DNA of 64,000 bases from assembly GCF_021028975.2 (NCBI RefSeq), contig NC_059427.1, positions 72,416,001 to 72,480,000 of the forward strand, written 5' to 3'. Positions 1 through 45,249 of the stretch are shown in pieces; position 1 is the stretch's first letter; every line of letters starts with the position of its first letter. The translations under genes and the position numbers were made by a program. The notes under the pieces were generated by a model. The model was not told the DNA's origin and did no database searches. It saw only the letters and a program-made list of their open reading frames with translations. This DNA is from Sphaerodactylus townsendi. Its lineage: Eukaryota.

Positions 1-370
1 TAACTGGAAAAAAAAGTGATTCATTTGAAATGTAGTGTTGGAGGATAGTTTTACAGATACCATGGACAGCGAGAAGGATAAATAAGCTGGTTCTAGTCAA
101 ATCAAGCCTGAATTCTCCTTAGAAGCTCAGATGACTAAACTGAGGCTACTGTACCTTGGTCACATTATGAGTAGAGTCACTGGAAAAAATAATGCTATGA
201 AAAGTTGAAGACAGCATGAAGAGGAAGACCTAACAAGATGAATTGGTTCAATCAAGGAAGCCATATCCCTCAGTTTGTAAGACCTGAGCAAGGTTGTTAA
301 TGATAGGACATTTTGAAGGACATTAGTTCATAGGGTCATCATAAATTGAAAGCAACATGAAGACCACATG
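1..370 (+). mobile_element. RTE-clade LINE, degenerate 3' fragment
   Basis: Broken translation resembles the RTE ORF C-terminus (DSFEM.CWR..LQIPWTA.., IKPE.SLEAQMTKLRL.Y.GHIM.., KVE.S..RGRP) with stops and frameshifts. Confidence 0.7.
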
Positions 371-384
371 CAAACAATGTTATA

Positions 385-3300
385 ATGACCTCTATACATA
401 GGTAAGAGGCCTCAGTTTTAGTCCAGCCCTTCGATCACTCTTCCTGCTGCTCTTTTCCTTTTTTGTTTTCTCAAGGGACACTTTCACATCACTTTTGAGT
501 CTCAGGCTGTGTGATCTGCCTTGAACCTCAGTGAGAAAAGTAGACTATAACTGACATAAATAAAACAAGCACTTTTGTGCCACCATCTCCTTTTCCTCCT
601 ACATACTACCTAAGTTCTTGAGAGCATAATTGGGAGAAGAGCAAGTGTATATGTCTAGTTTAGATGGTTTGGGTGCCTTACCTCCCCTACATCTCAGGAC
701 AAGGTGTGTTTGGTTGTGGGCTCACCATTTGACTAGGTTTGCTTTATCCATTCCAGGCATTCTACAGCCAGTATCTCTCCTGCCACTAAGGGTTCTAAAT
801 CCTCCCTGCCAATTTAAGTTTGTATGCCATTCCTAAATTTGTTGCTGTCCATTTCATCTACAGAATAATGTTTGCCCCCTGTTAATTTACATCACATGCT
901 ACATTAAATACCCAATGTACCTACTACTGCTACTACTATTTTTCTCCCTAGGGAGGCTGAGGATAGAGAAAATGAGCAGGAATGGCATCCTACCCACCTG
1001 CGTGTGACTGTCCTGCGTGCCTGCTCCCTGCGCACAAAGGGAACTGCTTGCAACCCCTATGTTGTGATCCAGCTACAAAAGCAAAAGTTTAGGACCTCCA
1101 TTTCATCCCACAGCCTAACTCCTGAGTGGCATGAGGAATGCTTACTGCAGCTGCCCAATGTGCTGGATGACTCAAAAGAGCACAGCCTCGTCCTTACTGT
1201 CATGCATCAGTCCTTGCATCATTTCAGCCAGTTCCTGGGCAGAATCTCCCTGCCCTTGGCTCAACTTTTTCAGGACAAAACAAAGAGAAAAAATGAGTGA
1301 GTATAGTCAAACAGCTAGTGCGACATCCATCCTCTCGAGTTAAGTTGAGGTCACCTATCCAAGCTGCAGAGTGGGATTAAGTATGGGATATGGGAAACTT
1401 GCAGTTTGGAGAGGGGAGTATTCTGTCTTCTCAGCTGGCAATGATTCCCAGATTGCAGGTTTGTTCTTTTAGCTTATTGGGAATATTTACACAACTGATT
1501 TATGGAGACCCTGTAGTTTTTCAAAGCAAGAGATGTTGGAAGATGATTTGTCATTACTCATTTTCACATCACAACCCCCAGTATTCCTTGGAGGTCTCCC
1601 ATTCAAATACTAAGTAGGGTCAAAGCTGTGTGACAGGCCCAAGGTCACCCAACAAGCTTACATGGCATGAATGGAGATTTGAACCTGGATTTCCCAGGTC
1701 ATAGTTTGACATCTTAACCACTACACCAGGCTGGCTCTCCATACTAGTCATTTAGTAATATGAAAGTGGCAGTGTCTATCCGGGTACAGAATCTGGCAAG
1801 TTCCATTTGCAGCAAAGTACCAGCAACACTATTTTTACCGTTTGCACTGAAGGGCAGGCAGTTGTTGTAGTGAATAAAGATAATCCTGTGCCAAGTTGTA
1901 CCTTACAGTGGTAGCTGTACAACCAAGTAAGTAGATGATCACCTAAAGGATCTTGCCAAGTGGGGACGAGTACTTTCATCAGACATCTTCCCCTACTCAG
2001 AACTCTACAGGAACTGTACAGTTCTTTTCAGCGTTCAGCAGTACCTTATAGATAAGCAGCTAACACTGTTGTTACATTCACACTATCCAGGCATATGCTA
2101 TCACACTTCTGGGTGTATGGTATCAGAGGCTGAGACTTGTTCTGCTACAGAGTCACCTTTGTTCTGCCATGGTAGCTGGCAGGAGCTGAGTACATGTGGC
2201 AGGTGCCATGCTTTTATGTCTGCAGGTGGTTTGTGCTGCAATCGAGGCATGGGAAGAAAGAGAAGATGAGAGGACAGCTACAGCTTGATATCCAGTTTCT
2301 GCAGATCTCCTCACCAAGCAATGGGCCATCACTCAGCTCTCGTGGTGGCTGGTCTCTCTTCACCAGATTTTGTGATAGCAGAAAGGGAAGCAAGTACAAG
2401 GCATACAAAGAAACTCAGTCCCACTCATCCAGCATGGTATGTAGAACCGGGCAAACCCATTGCCAGACCTTTAATTTTTCCTGTGAAGAGCCGCATGCTG
2501 CAGAAAGTCCATGATCTTATATTCAGCCATGAGGACCCAGAAGCTTTTGGGACATGTTCCATGAGGGTCATATGAATTCACTTTGCATTATCCACATGAA
2601 TGCACTCCATGAGAAACCTATCCTGGTTAGAGCATACATTCAATTTATGAATAGTTCTTTTCTACTTCCTGCCCCATATTATCACAGACATATTCCAGAC
2701 CAAAAACCATTCCTGGTATCACATTTGAAGTCTTGGCCTGAATCCAAAATAATTGGACTTAATGCAGTGCCAAGCTTCCCATGCCATAAAAACAAAAAAC
2801 ACTATTTAAGAACAAATACTACAGAACACAGCTTCCTTTAAAAGCAGCCCCCCATGTAAATAGGAGCCTGACTCCCTTTCTCACTTTCGTTGGGGAAACA
2901 AAGTAATGTTGGGGAAGAGAAGCAACATAGGCCACAAACATTACAGAAAGCTTTATAGAATATCTTGCTATAAAGTGAGGTAGTAGACAATAGATCTGCT
3001 TGAGAATTGGTGTTTGAACCACAGCATGTTTATCTCTAAGGCTGCTGTGTTGGCCATTGTATTATGCTTTTCTTTCTCAGACAAATGAAGAGGATTCATC
3101 TTCTTCCAGCGTGAACACAGAACTAGAGATCTCAACAGCAAAGTCTGGACCCAAGTTGGGGGACTCGTTGCCCATTGTAGCAGGTGACTTTGCAATGCCT
3201 CTCTAGACAGTTACAGCTCTTCACAAAGACCTCACTGGCTACAGTGAGTTGACAAATCTCTTCCTGTTGTTAATTTCTCCACACACACATGGCCCTTAGG

Positions 3301-4911
3301 TGCAGACCCTAGGGGCAGATTATCAGAGGTCGTCCCATAGTTTCATCTTTATGTCAGAAAATGAACAGCAGCGTCAAGTAATTAACCTTTAGAACATGGA
3401 GCAGAAGTTTACCTGAGGTGGAAGTACCATTCTTGGTTGGAGAAGGAAGCAAGCCAGAATGCCTCCAGGCCAATAAAATGCATGCTCAGTACCAAGAATG
3501 GCAACACTGTAATCAAACCCACCTAATATTTTTACATGTTCTTCTTCAGCATCCAAACAAGCATCAGACTCCCAAGCTCTGTAGCTGCTTAATAAGCTTG
3601 TCATACGGTCGAACAAAGAACCAGATAACTGAAGGGTAGGACTTTTAAGCCAGTCTCCTACATTGGCTATCACCAGCCCTTACCTGCTATAATAGCTTCC
3701 TTGTAGCTGAACAGTGAGATCAGAAAGCTCACACTACCAGAGGGACATGGTCTACACCTGGCAGAGGCTTGGGAAAAAGGATTGCTCTGCTCCCTTGCAT
3801 TACTGTCTCATTCAGTTCAATTTCATTGTTTGCTAGTTCTATACATACTAGGAAAGCAGCAGTCCTGTTTGCACTATGCCTTGTTCTTTTCCACATTCTC
3901 TCCATTTGCCCTGATCTTTTCACTAATGCGTATGGGAATGCCCCAAGAATGCCTTTGGTGGTAGTGGGGAGAAGGGAAATCAAAAGTGATGTCAGAAAAG
4001 GGGGAAATATGATTTTTATCTCCTTTGCAAGTACTCCAATAATTATATTAACCCCTCCCACCCACCCAAGGTTTTTGATAAGGGACCATAGATTTGGCAA
4101 TCAGTAAGTCATGCAGAGTAACCTACTTGACTGTATGGTTGAACAGCAGAAAAATTTGAAAGATTTGAATAGGGAGTATACTGGCAAGGAAAGATTAGCT
4201 GGGAGTGGGAGACAGTACAGCAGGCTCAGTGGCCTAGAAGGTGGGAGAGAACCCGGACATAACATTGAAAACCACATTGAAAACTCACTTTGAATGCAAA
4301 TATTCAACCATCTTGTGTGGTTTTCTAAAATTTCTGTCCTCCAATAATATCAGGCCAGAAATGTGAGTTTTAGGTTCCTGATGTACACTGTGTAGCAGAA
4401 TAGGCACCCTGGTATACCTCTGCCTTTTGAATGTGGTCTACAGGGCAGTAGAGGCAGTGGTAGGGAAAGCTTTAAGTGGAAACCACCCGGGGGGGAGGGG
4501 GGCGCGCTAAGAAGTCACAACTGTGTATCCCCTGTGCCTTTACTCTCTTACAGCAGCTCTAGCTGGGAGAAAACCTGCATCCACAATACAGCTGCAAAAG
4601 CTCACGTCACACAACTACAAGGACCTTTCATCTGAAGCTATGAACTTGGCAGACTGTTCAAGTCAGTCAGAGCACCCAGTTACCCTGGAACAGTTTAGTA
4701 GCATCTTCACTTTGCCTCCCAATAAAAAATCTAAGCCTCTGAAAGAAGAGAGGAGTCCAGAGGCAGCAGGTATTGCTATGGAGCCTTGGCAACCATCTCT
4801 TCTTCTGCGTGCTGCAGGACCCAGTGAAATCCCTCCACAGGCACAGACCCTTCACCTCTCTACAGTGAGCCTTCATCAGACCACTAGCTCTACAACCAGC
4901 CGCTTCCGCAG
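385..4911 (+). CDS. Divergent class-I Rab11-FIP-like C2-domain protein (3' end uncertain)
   Basis: Firm exons are 952-1296 (EWHPTHLRVTVLRACSLRTKG..NPYVVIQLQKQKFRTS..PEWHEEC.LQLP..L.LTVMH..QFLGRISLPL) and 2226-2436 (WFVLQSRHGKKEKMRGQLQLDIQF). They match the RAB11FIP1/2/5 N-terminal C2 domain and are joined by a phase-2 GT-AG intron. Phase-compatible candidate exons: 385-401 (ATG ACC TCT ATA CAT AG|GTAAGA), 3081-3183, 4554-4911 and possibly 5342-5645. Confidence 0.7.
1625..1739 (-). mobile_element. tRNA-derived squamate SINE, 5' part
   Basis: Reverse strand begins GAGAGCCAGCCTGGTGTAGTGGTTAAG (A-box) and continues to GGTTCAAATC (B-box). Related copies occur elsewhere in the window. Confidence 0.6.
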
Positions 4912-5626
4912 GTGCCAGCTGCGACTGCATAGGAGCTATCACTCCTGTCTTAGATGTTTTGGTTTGGGTTCCTGATATTGGGGTTTCAGATCTGTCTCAA
5001 AACTCTCTTGCTGAAAAACTAATTGGAAGAAGCAGCTATGTACAAATGTATCATATTCAAAAAATATCTGGGGGTGTGGCTGGTTTCTTTGATGCTGTGG
5101 AGCTCCTGGCAAGATCAAGGCTAGTCATGGATCAGAAGACTGGTTTAGGTTAGGACTCTGGATTCTAGAATTAGAAAGTTGCATTGTTAGAAAAGGAAAG
5201 TGACAGGAGAATATGACAATTCATGTGACAATGCTTACGTACATGCACTCATACATATTCCACCCCATGTTGTCCTTTCAATGTTCACTTGCTTTAATGC
5301 CCTTGTTGCAATAAGCCAGCAGTGTTTACATCATTTAACAGCCCAAATGCATGTTCCCAGGCCATGATGGGCTTCAGTAAGATGGAAGGCGGTTATGCTC
5401 TTGGAGCCAGACTGAAGACGTCAAGAAATGATCCTGCAGGGGAGTTTCACAGCAGGAACCTATGCAGATTTTGGCACACAAGAGATGCATCCTTCCAGCA
5501 ACCTGATACAGATTCTCTAAGAGCATCACCCTTAGGTGTCAGCCTGAGCAAAAAGGTCTCCAAAACAAGCTTTCAGCCTTTGTCCCCCACCCTGCCATTC
5601 AGTCCGTCCTGCTGCTTACTCTTCAG

Positions 5627-5632
5627 TTTATT
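5627..5632 (-). terminator. Candidate poly(A) signal of B4GALT7
   Basis: AATAAA on the minus strand about 350 nt downstream of the B4GALT7 stop. Confidence 0.5.
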
Positions 5633-5982
5633 AAAGTGTAGGTAAACAAGTGAATTCTTCCAGCAAAGACTATACAATCTTCAGGTAAGGTGAACCGGCA
5701 TCCTTCTTAATGGCAGGCTGCATAGCGACTCAGCTGACTGATGTTTGCAAGCAACTTCACATTCGTTGTCACTTTACAGTATCCTTGCAGGACAGGCAGT
5801 GCCCTGCATATACCTGTCACCTGATGTGACTCCTCAGCCTTCTTTTTAATCATCTGACCCACAGGCATCCATGCCCAGCTGTTAGTTTCTGTGGGGGAAT
5901 CTGTCTTCCGTGGGTTCAGCTGCAATCCTGGCAACCAGCAGCTGCTGTAGGAACGTAGTAAGAAGTCTGTGTGGCGAGCATC

Positions 5983-15555
<9,573 letters not shown>

Positions 15556-35274: not shown

Positions 35275-38200
35275 TTACTTCTTCCGACTTGAGATCTGGT
35301 TACACATCCAGTTCATCCCATCCTAGAAAGATAAAAGTGAGCAACAGCCATTATTGGGCCCTGATTCCAGCACCAAGCATTTCCATTTATCATTGCCAGC
35401 TTTAAAACCTCCACAGACTTCTTTGATGTAGTAGTGCACTTCGCTTCGCACTCCAGCAGCCAGTGCGGTAGAACGTTGGGGACGCTAACGGACCTCGCTG
35501 GCCTTGCCGGGCAAATGACGCACTCTTCACTCCTCTCATCCCCCCCATGAGTCACGGGTCATGAACTGTCTGACTCAATCACCGGGCGCAGGGACAATGG
35601 TCTTGCCCCCAGGTGAGGATTAGGCTCAGACGCTTACGCTTCCTTCCTCAAGATCGAAATAGATGAGATCATGCATCATATGATGATCTCCTCGACTTCC
35701 CGCCTTCCGAACTCCCCGTCCTCCCTCCTACACTTCAATAGATAACAATAAAAGGTGCTGTGAACCGGCAGAGTGGAGACTCGCTAGTAGGAACAATGGA
35801 CTGGTCTCCCGCCTGGCGATCTCCACCAGATGTTATCTCCGGCTCGCTCGCTCTTCTACTTTGACCGCTGCGGCTCCACTACACTTTTGATGGTAGTGCA
35901 CTGCCTAATTCAGCAGCTGCGGGTAGAACGTGCTAGCAACTTGACCCGCTGCCTTGCCGCCGGTCGATCGCACTTCTACTCCTCATCCCCCCATGAGTCA
36001 CGGTCATAACCATGTCTGACTCCATCACCGGCGAGGACAATGGTCTTGCCCCCCAGGTAGAGGATTATTTTCAGGCTCAGACGCCACGCCCTTCCTCCGC
36101 CGCGACGTGAGCCAGATGAGATCATGCATCACATCTCCCATCTCCCGCCTCCCCGAACTCCCCCCCCGTCCTCCCTCTCCCCAATAGATAACAATAAAAG
36201 GTGCCAGGAACCGCAGACGGGAGATTTAGGAACACGGACCTCCGGCCCCCGGCTGCTGCTGAAGGAGCTCACCAGATGCATATCTCCCGCCTCGTCTTCG
36301 CTTCCACGCTTCGACCGCTGCGTGGGCTCTAATTTACACTTTGAGATCTCCTTATGTGCATATATACACAGAAATCTTTGTACCTGGACTCCTTCACCTG
36401 ATATGGCTGAACACGGTTGGATTTGCCATGGCCGGTCTCGATATGTGTGCAGGCTCAGCCCTTCAGCAATGTCTGCTGCAAGGGATGCTGTTGCCAGGTC
36501 TTGCTTGTTAGCAAATACCAGCAAAGGGACACCAATGAGATTGTCCTCTTCCACTAGTTCAGACAGCTCCTGGTAAACACACACAATGTTCTTATTTATT
36601 TGTTTATTTATACCCCACCCTACACTGAAGCCCCAGGGCAGCTTACATAATGGAATTAAAAGCCCACTTAAAACATACAATCTTCAAGGTTTCCAGCCCA
36701 AAGCGCAATGGCATATATCCTACCACTCCACTATGCAAAGTTTGAACTCTTCCACCAGAACTTCCTCCAATTTAAGTGGTTTTTCCTTCAATGAAAGAGC
36801 CACTAAAGTTGGAGGAAGGCTCCTTAAACTGGAGAACTTCCCACAGGTAGGATATACACCAGTGACATTAGAAAAGTCATATAAATTAAAACAATCAAAC
36901 AAATGTTTAAAATACACATAAGATGGTAAGAAAATCAACAGCAGCAAAACAAGCAGGCGACAAATGGCAAAATTATCTAATCAAACCACTATGAAATAAA
37001 ACTGTTTTACATTGGTGATGAAAATAGAAGAGAATAGGCACCAAAAAGTGTTTCCCGGGAGGGTATTTAGGGTGTCACTACAATAAAGGCCTTACTCCAG
37101 GTTGCCTCTCACCAGTCTTCCAAAGTCAGGGGCACCTGGAACAAGCCTCAGGTTACGACTTCTGTGAAGAGGAATATTCATACAGAAGAAGTTTGTCCTT
37201 CGTGTAGTCTAGTCCCAAACTCCTTAAGGTTAACAGGCCATTATACACCAGAAGCTAGTGCAGCTCTTTTGGCATCAATGAGGTATACTCAGTACAGGAA
37301 GTTCCAGTTAACAAAATTCCAAACTAGTCTGGGGTTTTGAATACTCTTGAAATGCAGCTGCCCCATGGTAATAATCCAACCTGGATGTGACCAAAAGATG
37401 GGTAACTGGTAAGTTTACCCTCTTCCAAGAGGAGAAACAGCTGCTGCCTCAAGTGAAGTTCATGAAATGAAGTTGATGAAAGGCATTCCAAACCATGGAT
37501 GCCACTTGGGCATCTATAGTCAGGGCAAGATCTGAAAGGGCCTCATATCTTATTTACTGTACCAAAACAGAGTAAAATAAATGTAAGAATAAAGCACTAA
37601 GTAAGAACTCTGAAAACCTAGTTCTACTGTTAGGCTGTGTAACTCCAGATAGAATTTTTTTACCTTCAGTGTTTTTCGTTTATAACCATGGTTGTACAGT
37701 TCTATACAGTCAAACTGATGGGGGCAAAGCCTGCCAAAGATTCTGCTATAGGATGGAGTTATGAGACTGTTTGAAAAAGCCTGGATATCCTACCTGCCCA
37801 GTCTCCTCAAAGCGTTTTTGGTCAGCACTGTCAATAACATAGATCTGCAATCAGAAAAAGGAGAGTAATCTACTGTCTACCTTTATCCTTATTGGTCCCA
37901 GGTCTTCTGTATCAGCTCCTATCCAAAAACAGTACTACTGGGGGTTAAAGCATCTCATACATGGTTCACTTGACTCCAAGACATTTTGTTGCCTAAGTGA
38001 GAGAATCCAAGTAGGATAATAATCCACGCAGAATATTAAAATAAAGAACTGACTATACACTGTCCTATAATGGTATCTCATAGTCTGCCACATGAAGCCT
38101 CATTTGCTGGGGATTGACCTTATCCTAGATTCCTTTGTACTTCAGAGGCAGTCAAGGTAGGGGGATGGTCCCCATGCTCACCAATACATCCGTGCTGGCC

Positions 38201-41078
38201 AGGTACTTCTTCCAGTAGTTCCGGATGGCCCGTTGTCCCCCTATGTCCCAAACACTGAGCTTGAAACCATGAGAGTGGACATTCTTAATGTTGAACCCCT
38301 GTGAAGGCAAAATGGGAAAAGATAAGCAGCAAGACATGACAGTCAGTGAGTCTGTCTAAGACACCAACTGTCTAAGACCTGAATGAGTATAATAATGGCT
38401 TGATAGCCTTCTGTGGTTGGGAAAGCTACTTCTGGTAAAGGCAATTTAGGGATCCCCCAGAATTACAGCAGATTTACAGACTACAGTGATCAGCTGCCCT
38501 GAAGAAAATGGATTTTTGGAGTGTGGACACAATGGCATGGTAGCCCACTGAGATCTCTGTCTTCCTCTGGCTCCATCTCCAAATCTCCAGTAATTTCCCA
38601 ATCTAGATCTGGCAACCCTACATTTACAAGGCTTGTAAATTGCTTGTGCCCTATTCCCCCAGGTGCCAAAGGGTACCTGGAAAACCTAAGGCAGGGGTGT
38701 CCAACTCTCGTGCCCCAGATGTTCATGGACCATGATTCCCATCAGCCCCTGCCAGCATGGCCAATTGTAGTCCATGAACGTCTGGGGTGCCAGAGTTGGA
38801 CACCCGTGCCCTAAGGCATTCAAAGCGAAGAAGAATATATGAAGGCATTGTCTCCTCTGATTGGGGCAGCTTGTGCCAACTGCAGCTTGAGAAATTCCTG
38901 AAACTTTGAAAGTAATGTCTGGAGGCACAGAGTTTGGCCAGGAAGTTCAGCAGCGATGGGATGCCATAGAATCCACCCTCTGAAGGTGGCATTTCTTCCA
39001 AGGGAATTGATCTCTATAGTCAGGAGGTCAGCTGTAATTCTGGGAGAACTCCAGGCCAGTAGCATAGTGCCAACGGGGCTGGGAGGGGGGGGCATGCATG
39101 ATGCCCCGGGCAGAGCAGCAGTGGAGGGGGTGTTGCAAGGCATTTTGGGGGCATTCCGGGGCAGGGCGGGTGTGCCACAGCAGGGGCACAGGTGGAGGCG
39201 CGCCCCAGGTGCAGTTTCCCCTTGCTCCATCTCTGCTCCAGGCCCTGCCTTCAGGTTGGCAGTCCTGGCTGCTTCTTTGTTTCCAGTCATCCTTATCAGA
39301 AATACATTGTTTGGATCTAAAATGATAATCAAAGAACTGTTTATAGGTGCATGCATATCATCCGTAGTCTGGACATTTGAGCACTCAGGAACAAANNNNN
39401 NNNNNNNNNNNNNNNNNNNNNNNNNNNNNNNNNNNNNNNNNNNNNNNNNNNNNNNNNNNNNNNNNNNNNNNNNNNNNNNNNNNNNNNNNNNNNNNNNNNN
39501 NNNNNNNNNNNNNNNNNNNNNNNNNNNNNNNNNNNNNNNNNNNCACAAGATCCATCAAGTCCAACACCCTGCCATGCAGGAAGACACAACCAAACCCCTG
39601 CTGACAGATGGTCATCCAGGCCTCCATTTAAAAACCGCCAAAGTAGTTTTTAAAACACAACACTGTTCCACTTCCTCATTGCAACTTAGAGAAAACTAGC
39701 ATATAAATTGTAATATGGGTCTAAAGATGCTTGAGAATTCAGATGAGAATTTTTAAATAAATTATATGATTTTTTTTAAAAAAATCAGTCTTTCCAGCTT
39801 TCCTGTCTAAATGCCTGAGCTACAGATCTATCATTACCAAACCTTAGAGCCACTACAGCATAGGGGTAGGGGTTGGTGGGCTGGGAATATAATGGCTAAG
39901 GCAGAATACTCTAACATTTTTGAGCCTGCAGGCACATTTGGAATTCTGACGTGACATGGTCGGTGCAGCAACAAAATGGCTCAACCTTGTGCTGTGATGG
40001 CAGCTCCTGTGAAAGCAACATTAAAAAAATTTGCACAGCCAAACAATTCTCCAATAATCAACCAGAAGTCTGATGGGCAAAAGCCCTACCTGGCTTCACC
40101 CAGCTCCTAAAAATACTTGGCAGGTACCACAAAAGGTGTCAGTGGGCACCATGGTGACCATGGGCAGAATGCTGAGGACACTTGAGTGTTTTTGCTGGCA
40201 TATTGTTTGGGGAGTGTTTCAGTTCTACTTGTTGGAGATGGGCATAGTGTAACTGCTGTAGCAAGGGTGGTGGTTTGGATCCTCCTGCTCACAAACCAGC
40301 TTCTTTAAGTCTCTATGTAATTAATTACCCAAGAGCTAAATGTCCCATCCCACCCCCTCAAGGGAGATCCTCTCTGCTGCAGTGCTTACCTGTGTGGGGG
40401 TGATGGTGTCCACCTCTTCAGATGCCAGACACTTCAGCAATGTGGTCTTGCCAGCATTGTCCAGCCCCAGTAGAACAATCCGCAAGTTTTGCTCTTCGGA
40501 GCCTTTAAGCTTTTGGATGACTGACAGAAGCCCCTGGGGTGTGAAGAAAGTGTTCATGGATAGGGCCCTGTATCCATGCCAAGAAAAAAGCAAGAGGGCA
40601 AGGATTCTATGGAAGCGCAATGGGGTGCTCCTGGGTTTGCTGTATGGATGGGGTCATACTAGAGGGTCAAGCTGGCCTTTTAGAACCTTCTTCTGAACTG
40701 TCATTTGATTCCAAAGACCTCAGAGTTGACCCTGAGCTCCTAGGCCATAGCAAAATACATACAATTTTAGCTCTACTTTTGTGACTACGTTGTTCTGACC
40801 CATATATATATTTGCTCTACTCACAATTGTACCAACCTGCCTCACCAGCCCCAGGGTTCCTTTCTATTACTTTTGGTTGTATATTACAGATTACCCCATA
40901 ATGCCAACAGGACATGTCTCTGAAACAGAGGACATAAATTTGTTCCAAGGAACAAGTTGGCTGCAAGCATCAGCGGCTAACTAGCCACACTGAGCCACAC
41001 TGTAAAAAAGGCTCTTTGCTATCCCATGCTATTTGCTGCAGATCTGAAGAACCTACTTACCTTCTTTGCTTCACCCAT
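35275..41078 (-). CDS. ADP-ribosylation factor-like 3-like small GTPase (ARL3 paralogue), 187 aa
   Basis: complement(join(35275-35322,36384-36569,37794-37844,38182-38298,40390-40533,41061-41078)), 564 nt, all phase-0 GT-AG introns as in ARL3. Starts MGEAKK|[10 protein letters not shown] and has [31 protein letters not shown] and DGMNW. It is clearly diverged from canonical ARL3. Confidence 0.93.
35427..36338 (+). mobile_element. Two tandem ~450-bp solo-LTR-like units (35427-35883, 35891-36338)
   Basis: Unit 1 has TGTAGT...ACTACA termini and both units have an internal AATAAA. CTTTGA flanks both ends (35421-35426, 36339-36344) and CTTTTGA lies between the units. CpG-rich. Confidence 0.65.
36990..37520 (-). 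mobile_element. Degenerate L2-like LINE fragment
   Basis: Contains ATAATCCAACCTGGATGTGACC and other segments resembling L2 ORF2 C-terminal sequence on the minus strand. Heavily decayed. Confidence 0.35.
38692..38808. mobile_element. hAT-type MITE (related to 27439-27577)
   Basis: TIR CAGGGGTGTCCAACTCT...AGAGTTGGACACCCGTG with an 8-bp TSD ACCTAAGG/CCCTAAGG (7 of 8 match). Confidence 0.75.
39396..39543. other. Assembly gap (148 N)
   Basis: Run of N within ARL3-like intron 2. Confidence 0.99.
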
Positions 41079-42832: not shown

Positions 42833-43557
42833 TTACAAAAGACAGTTTCAGGCCATTTCCTTATATGCAAGTTTCACACCTCTCTTTCTGCTGAGTGCAC
42901 TCAACAATCTGCATATTCTTAGTTAAATCCTGGCTTTCAATTTGTTTAATTGCAGCAACATCTTGGTGTCCAAAGTGCCTGTGCCAAAAATGTATGCATT
43001 GTCTCTGAGCACAGTTTTGAACAATATTTGCTTTCTCCACATATAAATCAAGGTGATACAGTCATCCTTTCATTGTGCTCGCCTGTCAATCCTCACTGAC
43101 CATCAATGTGGTCTCCTTGTTTATGTTTGGATTCAGTTGCAAAGTGACCAATCTTTCCACAAGCATGGCATGTTAACTGCCTTTTGTCTGGTATGGTCAA
43201 GGCTTGTAAATTACTTGTGCCCTGAATAAACTCTCTCCAGATATGCTCCTCTTTTAATTCTTTAATACCTTTTGCCAAAAGTAGATGTTCCTTGCTCTGT
43301 TGTCATAACTCTTGGGAAGTAAAATCAGCAACAGTAATATTACATTATCATAATCCAAAGTCTTCCCGCCCATTTTGAGCTGACCAACCAATTTTAGCAT
43401 TTTGTTTAAATTTTGATTCAAAATACCCTCCATGAGCAATCGCTTTGTAAACAATTCTCGCTGGAGGAACATCACTGTCCCCTTTGATTTCTTTTCCTCC
43501 ACACTTTGATTTTTCCCCCAATTACTATCTTCTTTGATTTCTTTTCCCCAACACTTT

Positions 43558-43691
43558 GGCTCATTCCGCACATGCAGAATAATGCACTTTCAAACTGCTT
43601 TCAGTGCTCTTTGGAGCTGTGCGGAATAGCAAAATCCACTTGCAAACAGTTGTGAAAGTGGTTTGAAAATGCATTATTTTGCGTGTGCGGA
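43558..43691. mobile_element. PIF/Harbinger-type MITE nested in copia gag
   Basis: Reverse-complement copy of the element at 12479-12619. Confidence 0.75.
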
Positions 43692-45249
43692 GTTCTTCCC
43701 CAACTCATCCCAAATTTCTTTGGCTTTTTCAAAATCATCTACTTTCATTAGCAAGACATCAAATAGAGTTGAAACTATAATATTTCTGGCTTGGTCCTTT
43801 TGTCATCCCACACTGCTTGCTGGGCCTGCTGAGATGGTTTGTCAGTTGAAAGAAATCTCCATAACATTTCCTGTTGAAACATCCCTTTCACTCGTCATTG
43901 CCACATGCGAAAGTTCAACTCTGTTAATGGTTCAGGTTGGAGCCCGCAGCCATCATCACGAGTCGAGGCCGTCTTTTGTCTTTGTCCACTTGCTGTTCAG
44001 AGCTTCAGGGCAAACTTTTCAATCAGTGTAATTGATCCTGGGCCACATAACCAATAATGCTGGCAGATTAGTGCACACAGAAGCAGCAACACACTGACTG
44101 AATGGATAAACGTTAAATTTTTATTAGAGAATGACATTTCAGATACAAAAGGAGAGGACAGAGATAGTATGCAGCTACCTTGCCAGCTAGGGAAGAAGGT
44201 GTCTACTTAATGTCCGAGAAGAAGCAGGATATTAAATCTGAAAATATCAATCTGATGACAGACAAGAGGTGATACAATAGGACAGAGCAGTCACTAACCT
44301 TACAGCCCAATCTAGTTGACTGCTTCCCTCAGTTTCTTTGCACACTTCAATTTCCAACACCTCCAGCAAGTGAAGCATTTTTATTTTGTTTGGCATTGCC
44401 TCAGTGATCTCTCCTTCTTACACAATATTGTAATAGCTGTTGTTATACTTGGTATTTATTTTAGCTCTGATTTGATTGTTCCAGTGATTCAGGGTTTTTA
44501 ATGGTTTTAAAATGTGATTTTATTAATTATGTTTTAATTTATAAGCTGCTTTGGTGACCCTGGTGAAGGCAGAGTGGTGGGATACAAATTAGGTAAAGAA
44601 TAAAATAAATAAATAGTTCTCAAACAATAACACAATGGTATCTATGTAGCTTAAGGCCAGAGCTTTTTTCAGTCTTGCAGAGCTATTTTCAGCTTTTCAG
44701 TCCTGCAGTGAGTCTTGCAGTTAATAACTTTATTGTGCTGTAAACTTTTGTGACAATTTATTTAATCAGATGCATTAAGTGTGCCCTTAGTTAGAAAAGA
44801 CGTATTCATGGGCTTAGAGGAAAAACTGTAAACAGTGGGGTTGGAAGTAAAGAAATGCAAAAGACACACTATTACATTTTAAACAAAGCTCAGATGTTTT
44901 CAAGGTAAGCATAGTGAATGTTCACAGCAGAGGTAATCAGACTGAGCTTTACAAAGAAATATAATATGTTGCACTCTTCCATGTTATTGTCTTCTGACTC
45001 CACTGTTCACAGTGTATGCTTTTCTATGACCTTGTAAATGATTGGGAAAAATTAATGAAGCAAAGGCAGCCTGAGCTCAGTTATAATAAGCGGGTGCCAA
45101 GTCTTCCATCTAGAAAAAGAATTTATTGATGCATTAAGGCAAATACCTGATACCCCAAAGGAATCCACAGCAGTTGCAAAGATTCAAAGAACAATTTAGG
45201 GAATTACAGAAATTCTGACGTCATGATGACATAGGGACTAGTTATGTAT

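Follow-up and report, generated by a model that had tools for sequence, protein, structure and literature searches.

A probable fourth class I Rab11-FIP lineage lacking the Rab11-binding domain, identified in the gecko Sphaerodactylus townsendi

Introduction

The class I Rab11-FIPs, comprising RAB11FIP1 (RCP), RAB11FIP2 and RAB11FIP5 (Rip11), carry an N-terminal C2 domain (PF00168) together with PF09457, and are treated in the available part of one account as a family of three genes whose defining feature is the Rab11-binding domain (RBD) (PMC4678287). In the accessible sections of two reports phosphatidic acid and phosphoinositides are given as ligands of their C2 domains (PMC4156484, PMC4678287), residues R52 and K54 of Rip11 being required for the binding of phosphoinositides (PMC4678287), and FIPs are stated to reach membranes through Rab11 or through C2 (PMC4156484). 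Here we describe a gene of the gecko Sphaerodactylus townsendi, situated at one end of a 64,000-nucleotide stretch of contig C3 (G000:C3:72416001-72480000, hereafter the window, in which positions are counted from the first letter), that shares the C2 domain of these proteins and lacks their RBD.

The gene shares with class I Rab11-FIPs the type of N-terminal C2 domain with its WxPTH start, the phase-2 intron before a conserved Trp, the segment following C2 (in sharks) and the paralogon. It differs in having no RBD, in a length of about 380 amino acids, in a Cys-rich tail that is absent from 145 of 145 RBD-bearing FIPs, in an additional coding exon at the 5' end (in this gecko) and in having mostly lost the Asp of the [SN]DAY motif. 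We consider it rather probable that this intact gene, whose product combines a C2 domain of class I FIP type with a linker predicted to be disordered and the Cys-rich tail, is a fourth copy from the genome doublings and acts as a Rab11-independent membrane adaptor. It descends from the class I Rab11-FIPs but lacks the domain that defines them, and is therefore classed as an RBD-less variant and not as a Rab11 effector.

Structure of the Gene

Enumeration of splice borders yielded a model of five coding exons, with GT-AG at all borders and 376 codons without an internal stop. Its parts, all on the plus strand, are as follows.

Coding exon 1: -869 to -820, upstream of the window (G000:C3:72415131-72415180; L010:9131-9180), plus strand; 50 nt, from the ATG to a phase-2 donor
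Intron 1, 3' part: 1-951, plus strand; from the splice model, containing the candidate exon 385-401 of the sequence-only reading
Coding exon 2: 952-1296, plus strand; most of the C2 domain, with the WxPTH start and a K-x-K basic patch at residues 60-62
Intron 2: 1297-2225, plus strand; phase 2, directly 5' of the conserved Trp codon, donor after 1296 and acceptor before 2226
Coding exon 3: 2226-2436, plus strand; last two C2 strands, basic loop and eroded post-C2 segment
Coding exon 4: 3081-3183, plus strand; Ser-rich linker, predicted to be disordered
Coding exon 5: 4554-4975, plus strand; remainder of the linker, a basic amphipathic Cys-rich terminal helix (residues 354-372) and the stop, with no RBD
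Inferred 3' untranslated region: 4976-5645, plus strand; candidate polyadenylation signal ATTAAA at 5630, including an open reading frame (ORF) at 5298-5645

An earlier, sequence-only reading of the stretch had recognised a C2 domain with the RAB11FIP signature, split by an intron directly before the Trp and followed by Ser/Pro-rich exons, and each of these features was recovered: Pfam C2 matches at 953-1297 (E=3.3e-18), the phase-2 GT-AG intron occupies 1297-2225, and the Ser/Pro-rich exons lie at 3081-3183 and 4554-4975. The limits that it had drawn for the gene, 385 and 5645, had to be moved. There is no support for a start at 385, the first exon conserved in orthologues being that at -869 to -820, and the conserved reading frame stops at 4975 (stop codon at 4973-4975). 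Exon 1 was located by tblastn with an orthologue N-terminus; it shares 10 of 17 residues with the N-terminus of the gecko Paroedura and sits in a stretch richer in CpG, by CpG counts. By the same program exon 2 is 88% identical to the Paroedura orthologue P0001. Exon 5 offers in-frame tandem acceptors at 4554, 4557 and 4563. The ORF at 5298-5645 is read as 3' untranslated because it lies past the stop and has neither a Pfam match nor similarity to the orthologues.

The intron before the C2 Trp has the same position and phase in this genome's FIP1 and FIP2, where both splice sites were read, and in FIP5, where the acceptor was read. Within the intron, at about 1530-1740, there is a high-copy short repeat of very high contig depth, probably a short interspersed nuclear element. 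When the genome was searched with the C2 exon, only this locus, FIP2 and FIP1 were found among the 10 candidates scored, and a processed second copy was rejected on that basis; FIP2 and FIP1 are the closest paralogues by this exon, with 43% and 42% identity, respectively.

Absence of the Rab11-Binding Domain

None of the 11 window ORFs scanned with Pfam matched RBD-FIP, and a genome-wide search with PF09457 recovered six loci, none of them near the window, the nearest on contig C3 lying at 166 Mb. A custom RBD profile built from 145 fetched FIPs was then run over 8972 six-frame ORFs drawn from the window plus 100 kb upstream (164 kb) and from three control loci; the best ORF of the 164 kb region gave E 7.7, against 1e-27 to 9e-31 for the three control exons. 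Among the relatives described below, a few of them partial, Pfam RBD-FIP at E<=0.5 was detected in 0 of 30, whereas it was recovered in all eight controls, drawn from brachiopod, lamprey, hagfish, chimaera, sawshark, salmon, turtle and hedgehog, and comparison of tail profiles with the RBD profile returned a probability of <=0.1%. A hidden or degenerate RBD was rejected on these grounds. The sequence-only reading had seen no RBD before the 3' end of the convergent gene B4GALT7, and this now extends to the 164 kb region and to 30 of 30 relatives; the all-frame scan of the window and the 100 kb upstream revealed no spliced RBD exon.

The controls place the RBD in the ancestral protein, so that its absence from the new lineage is a loss; very probably it was lost once, before sharks and bony vertebrates separated. 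The FIP1 (C12), FIP2 (C8) and FIP5 (C10) genes of this genome lie elsewhere and each has an RBD exon. Three further RBD-FIP loci were seen at C4:152.6 Mb, C3:166.2 Mb and C6:24.6 Mb (L004, L005 and L008). Humans have two class II FIPs and, with these three loci beyond FIP1, FIP2 and FIP5, a third class II FIP is possible in this lizard.

Phylogeny and Paralogon

Trees were computed on about 208 columns, covering C2 and the segment following it, with some FIP1 and FIP5 rows labelled by their tree position and not by name. The new genes, from chimaera to gecko, formed one clade (97/95; 55 rows chosen from 209), which reappeared in a 29-row tree (97/92) where FIP1, FIP2 and FIP5 were also single groups, and in a tree without an outgroup (97/95), in which new genes plus FIP5 were split from FIP1 plus FIP2 (98/95). 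Vertebrate class I FIPs, including the new clade, were separated from those of invertebrates at 100/100. The new clade has evolved faster than the class I FIPs.

Approximately unbiased (AU) tests rejected trees that nest the squamate members with FIP1 of gecko (p 3e-116), FIP2 of gecko (1e-8) or FIP5 of turtle (4e-71), and with them the idea of a recent squamate duplicate; no nesting within squamate FIP1, FIP2 or FIP5 was seen. Also rejected were placements of tetrapod members with amniote FIP1 (0.008) or tetrapod FIP5 (0.013). For the shark members, joining FIP5 or FIP1 of sharks was likewise rejected (0.025 and 0.002, respectively). The grouping of new genes with FIP5 was not rejected (p=0.27). 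When either the shark or the tetrapod half was removed, the other half stayed outside FIP1, FIP2 and FIP5. The tree topologies date the apparent duplication to after the split from invertebrates and before that between sharks and bony vertebrates.

The surroundings of the gene bear on how it arose. The LZTS/N4BP3 family has four loci in this genome, one each on C12, C8, C10 and C3, the contigs of FIP1, FIP2, FIP5 and the new gene, at distances from the respective FIP of 2.4 Mb, 11.7 Mb, 4.0 Mb and 40 kb, the C3 locus lying upstream of the new gene; this four-way linkage fits a block duplication. Sideroflexins occur on three of the four contigs (C3, C8 and C10), and the ARL3-like gene of the window forms a paralogous pair with one on C8. 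For neighbouring loci we use the names LZTS1-3, N4BP3, TMED9 and RMND5B, which are presumed. The band positions of human RAB11FIP1, RAB11FIP2 and RAB11FIP5 had already led the sequence-only reading to the same paralogon, and the available text of PMC2453138 reports one that comprises human chromosomes 4, 5, 8/2 and 10. We hold it highly probable that the gene is an ancient fourth ohnologue from the two early vertebrate genome doublings, and probable, with less assurance, that it is the sister of FIP5. The earlier proposal of a fourth copy from whole-genome duplication therefore stands as regards an ancient fourth class I paralogue in the FIP1/2/5 paralogon and falls as regards its loss in mammals.

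A comparable history has been reported for Emx3. According to the part of the paper available, marsupials, amphibians and fishes retain it and eutherians lack it, Emx1 and Emx3 are paired in the best tree, and Emx1 is flanked by Rab11fip5 (PMC4464114). The new gene is likewise kept in marsupials and, in the searches described below, was met with among placentals only as a remnant, and the Emx1 and Emx3 pairing parallels the split of new genes plus FIP5. In contrast, Emx3 is reported there as lost in reptiles, where the new gene thrives, and it has kept its defining domain whereas the new gene has lost the RBD. Hidden fourth ohnologues are a known pattern and this limits the surprise.

Distribution and Naming of Relatives

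Members were found in 13 other squamate genera; among turtles, Mauremys has a model, and sea turtles and Platysternon have partial ones. The mammalian models are full-length in echidna, opossum, wombat and Tasmanian devil, whereas those of dunnart and tammar are shorter isoforms. Further members occur in axolotl, chimaera (partial) and 12 shark and ray genera. Full-length models extend across about 20 genera and the models mostly have 360-420 amino acids. No member was found in birds, crocodilians, frogs, lungfish, coelacanth, ray-finned fish, cyclostomes or other placentals, in searches so lossy that absence is not established: one homologue search missed 4 of 10 of its own query rows and another returned one protein per 50% cluster, the best 150 of 176 at E<=1e-30.

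The gene is not, as had been supposed, lost in mammals, given its retention in echidna and marsupials and a remnant in an anteater. For the latter, Tamandua, there is a 152-amino-acid model (P0178; XP_076994108) whose C2 exon is 52% identical to that of opossum, with the conserved Trp replaced and read-through past the exon, and which groups with mammalian members (98/97). It is read as a putative degenerate single-exon remnant in a placental mammal, suggesting slow decay rather than one deletion in placentals. The retention in echidna and marsupials, together with this remnant, adds one more gene loss marking placental mammals.

Nearly all relatives are automatically named FIP2-like, 1-like, 5-like or uncharacterised. 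Orthologues are listed under three paralogue names (P0003-P0007, P0014, P0022, P0058, P0065, P0207, P0211 and others), so that the automatic names point to three different paralogues and none marks a separate RBD-less lineage. Two database models of the gecko locus, P0015 and P0016, lack part of C2; the former matches window exons 2-5 from Met101 onward. The gene is, accordingly, already in databases under misleading names, as an overlooked fourth class I relative. No description of a fourth class I FIP was found in the open literature, most subscription journals being outside this coverage. One survey of lost genes contains no "rab11" in its main text and neither "rab11" nor "fip" in supplements 1-12 or the elusive-gene table (file 19), where an uninformative name is possible (PMC5901865); four supplements of another, one of them in part, held no match, its table being keyed by IDs (PMC10208646). 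A fourth lineage with early loss of the RBD corrects the history of the family and the labels FIP2-like, 1-like and 5-like in dozens of genomes.

The C2 Domain and Predicted Lipid Binding

An AlphaFold model of the Paroedura orthologue (12 rows, monomer) shows a confident C2 domain at residues 32-157, disorder at 163-356 and one 23-residue helix at 357-379. The C2 domain is the best conserved part of the protein. The gecko sequence is identical to that of Paroedura at 118 of 131 C2 positions (90%) and at 145 of 191 in the linker, and to those of a snake and other lizards at 108-112 of the 131 (82-85%). Foldseek gave generic C2 domains only, at E ~1e-8 and 15-26% identity, these sharing the fold (extended synaptotagmin C2A, MCTP2, dysferlin C2A and the NEDD4 family), and no solved class-I-FIP C2 was among the matches listed. 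In the ESM Atlas only C2-only clusters named FIP2 or FIP2-like were matched (0.92-0.94), possibly the gene's own clusters.

At the positions aligned to R52 and K54 of Rip11, the eight full-length amniote members listed all carry basic-x-Lys, so that the basic patch of RAB11FIP5 is matched in amniotes; axolotl and sharks, too, retain the Lys. The Asp of the [SN]DAY motif is kept in one of 16 members, and every control in which the motif could be read has it; a second conserved C2 Asp is Asn in squamates. Because the conserved Asp residues are mostly lost, lipid binding is expected to be independent of calcium, and we think it quite probable that the retained K-x-K patch would bind phosphoinositides or phosphatidic acid in this manner. 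The post-C2 segment is clearly kept in sharks and eroded in tetrapods. A Ser-rich match to the FIP2 phosphorylation region, the site of which we assumed, was suggestive in sharks only and was dropped.

The Cysteine-Rich Tail

At least two Cys occur in the last 40 residues of 28 of 29 relatives, against none of 145 RBD-bearing FIPs, and the sole exception to the terminal cluster, P0256, looks truncated. Cys makes up 7.2% of the last 40 residues and 1.0% of the linker. The motif CxxC[FL] is present in 24 of 29 members and CCxxC in nine of 10 cartilaginous-fish proteins, while the axolotl tail has CC only; the last Cys is invariant in a 14-row alignment from shark to gecko. The first Cys is replaced by Phe in three lizards, Varanus, Lacerta and Rhineura, which would fit a lipid-facing position better than a metal ligand. 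The idea that the protein is C2-only thus survives as to the missing RBD and fails as to "only", since a conserved C-terminal Cys cluster replaces the RBD.

In this gecko the tail cysteines are Cys357, Cys368 and Cys371, and the tail is identical to that of Paroedura at 24 of 27 positions. The terminal helix predicted for P0001 (357-379) has a predicted local distance difference test score (pLDDT) of ~76-78. The hydrophobic moment of the gecko helix, 0.64, was reached by 137 of 10000 shuffles; relative to the hydrophobic axis the three Cys are placed at angles of -37 to -97 degrees, with basic residues opposite. Across squamates the tail Cys map to the hydrophobic face of such a basic amphipathic helix or adjoin it. 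No CaaX end was found in any of 27 members, which rules out prenylation. S-palmitoylation usually takes place at cysteines flanked by basic and hydrophobic residues, and the conserved cluster, its basic and hydrophobic neighbours and the lack of CaaX provide, at the sequence level, an S-acylation context.

Evidence for Expression

None of the sequencing runs containing the stretch is recorded as RNA. In run X5, of unrecorded type, one contig of depth 12 joins 950-1296 to 2226-2435 among the listed joints, and the joint coincides with the predicted splice between exons 2 and 3; two deep runs gave long unspliced pieces among those listed. Intact orthologues and this one spliced contig speak against the combination of absent transcription and disabling mutations that the sequence-only reading had considered as a sign of a dead gene. 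Because no read in the four of five runs covered joins exon 1 to exon 2, the predicted full-length protein in Sphaerodactylus townsendi rests on conservation.

The region at -1000 to -820 (L010:9000-9180) carries GC-box-like motifs and two possible first-exon donors, at -938 and -820. The former lies in the CpG-richer stretch and leaves only short out-of-frame ORFs before Met101. At the other end of the gene, contigs of run X5 (4082-6141) and run X1 (4886-6141), both strandless, span the last exon of B4GALT7 and that of the new gene, hinting that the 3' ends of these convergent genes overlap.

Proposed Mode of Membrane Attachment and Alternative Explanations

We propose that the C2 domain would hold the protein on membranes by its predicted binding of anionic lipids, and that S-acylation (palmitoylation) of the terminal Cys would replace Rab11 as the second membrane anchor. 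Acylation is put forward in this role because FIPs reach membranes via Rab11 or C2, and the tail sequences incline us slightly towards it. The protein would then sit on membranes whatever the nucleotide state of Rab11 and could not be a Rab11 effector. More tentatively, and with rather less confidence, the lineage may have swapped a GTPase-binding domain for a covalent lipid anchor soon after the genome doublings and served since as a Rab-independent C2 adaptor, decaying in placentals. On this reading it would have been retained for some 450 million years, in sharks, salamanders, reptiles, monotremes and marsupials. As a natural Rab11-uncoupled FIP it offers a way of studying the FIP C2 domain apart from Rab11 and, should the tail prove to be acylated, a clear-cut example of a Rab effector's switch from GTPase-dependent to lipid-dependent targeting.

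With the same origin, the terminal CxxC or CC could instead be a protein-binding or dimerising element, such as an inter-chain zinc clasp or a helix pair replacing the RBD coiled coil. The Cys spacing in 24 of the 29 members and in nine of the 10 cartilaginous-fish proteins would suit this, as would the helix predicted in the gecko protein, and class I FIPs are described in the available text as dimerising via a C-terminal coiled coil (PMC4678287); we nonetheless find it unlikely, given the Phe in Varanus, Lacerta and Rhineura, the bare CC of axolotl, the orientation of the Cys towards the hydrophobic side of a basic helix and the lack of any similarity to the RBD. The protein might also act mainly as a competitor, occupying lipids or partners of the C2 domains of FIP1, FIP2 and FIP5 and thereby dampening Rab11-dependent recycling or signalling. 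FIP2 residues 1-192 alone bind NLRP3, according to the accessible part of PMC13144346, and C2 is where conservation is strongest, but the low C2 identities to FIP2 and FIP1 (43% and 42%), the eroded post-C2 segment of tetrapods and the long branches indicate divergence and not mimicry, and make this role improbable; it would, moreover, be compatible with an acylated anchor and provides no replacement for one.

As to origin, shark and tetrapod genes could be independent duplicates, or an old single-gene duplicate, with separate RBD losses, grouped by long-branch attraction. Long stems (0.48-0.69), the low resemblance of shark linkers and tails to those of tetrapods and the lack of members found by lossy searches in ray-finned fish, lungfish, coelacanth and frogs can be cited in its favour, but each half stays outside FIP1, FIP2 and FIP5 when the other is removed, AU tests reject five tetrapod-group and two shark-group nestings, both halves share their length (~360-390 amino acids), the RBD loss and the terminal Cys motif, and the four-way LZTS/N4BP3 linkage fits block duplication, so that we regard it as very improbable. 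That the gecko gene is a decaying, non-functional copy is hardly credible. The exon with the start codon may be skipped in the sole contig available, P0015 and P0016 lack part of C2 and the anteater gene looks degenerate; against this stand the open frame with canonical splice sites, the C2 identities of 90% to another gecko and 82-85% to a snake and other lizards, and the full-length models in about 20 genera.

Some observations weigh against the picture of an ancient, expressed fourth class I copy that has an acylated tail. In the trees, groupings of the new genes with FIP1 or with FIP2 were rejected just marginally (p=0.048 each), the rooted position of the clade is weakly supported (52/73; 58/19) and the long stems in both of its halves could attract each other. 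In the C2 patch axolotl has Asp as the first residue, and the six cartilaginous fishes listed have an uncharged or acidic one there. Marsupial and echidna tails have a low hydrophobic moment (0.22-0.34), the pentapeptide CxxCF is all that shark tails have in common with those of tetrapods (hhalign probability 3.6%), and AlphaFold predicts no helix for the shark tail (pLDDT ~40); because of the last two results the amphipathic helix is not established as ancestral. Transcript support consists of a single contig (depth 12) from a single run of unrecorded type. Its match starts at 950; if exact, this border fits neither the conserved exon-1 donor (951) nor that of the sequence-only reading (949), and five of 78 donors fit it, including the one at -938, which would skip the conserved ATG; the beginning of P0015 at Met101 agrees with a skipped start-codon exon.

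Neighbouring Genes

B4GALT7, rightly named as the convergent neighbour by the sequence-only reading, is a separate gene with Glyco_transf_7N/7C matches:

B4GALT7: 5983-13919, minus strand; last coding exon ending near 5983, Pfam matches in exons 8848-9174 and 13428-13919

A presumed TMED9, recognised by eye, lies at ~22.5-23 kb of the window without a Pfam match, and LMAN2 was not seen among 53 window ORFs scanned with Pfam. In humans PROP1 is located between N4BP3 and B4GALT7; no homeobox recognition-helix motif occurs in the window plus 100 kb upstream (L010-L019). An ARL3-like small GTPase gene (Pfam Arf) is encoded at 36132-36683 and 40339-40653 on the minus strand, its closest paralogue, 70% identical, being on C8 at 62.2 Mb. 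Humans have one ARL3, and the window gene is possibly another ohnologue missing from human. About 80 kb upstream of the window there is a bromodomain gene, which we take to be BRD8-like, and fragments of a copia-type long terminal repeat retrotransposon, with gag and pre-integrase Pfam matches, are found at 42864-43802 on the minus strand of the window.

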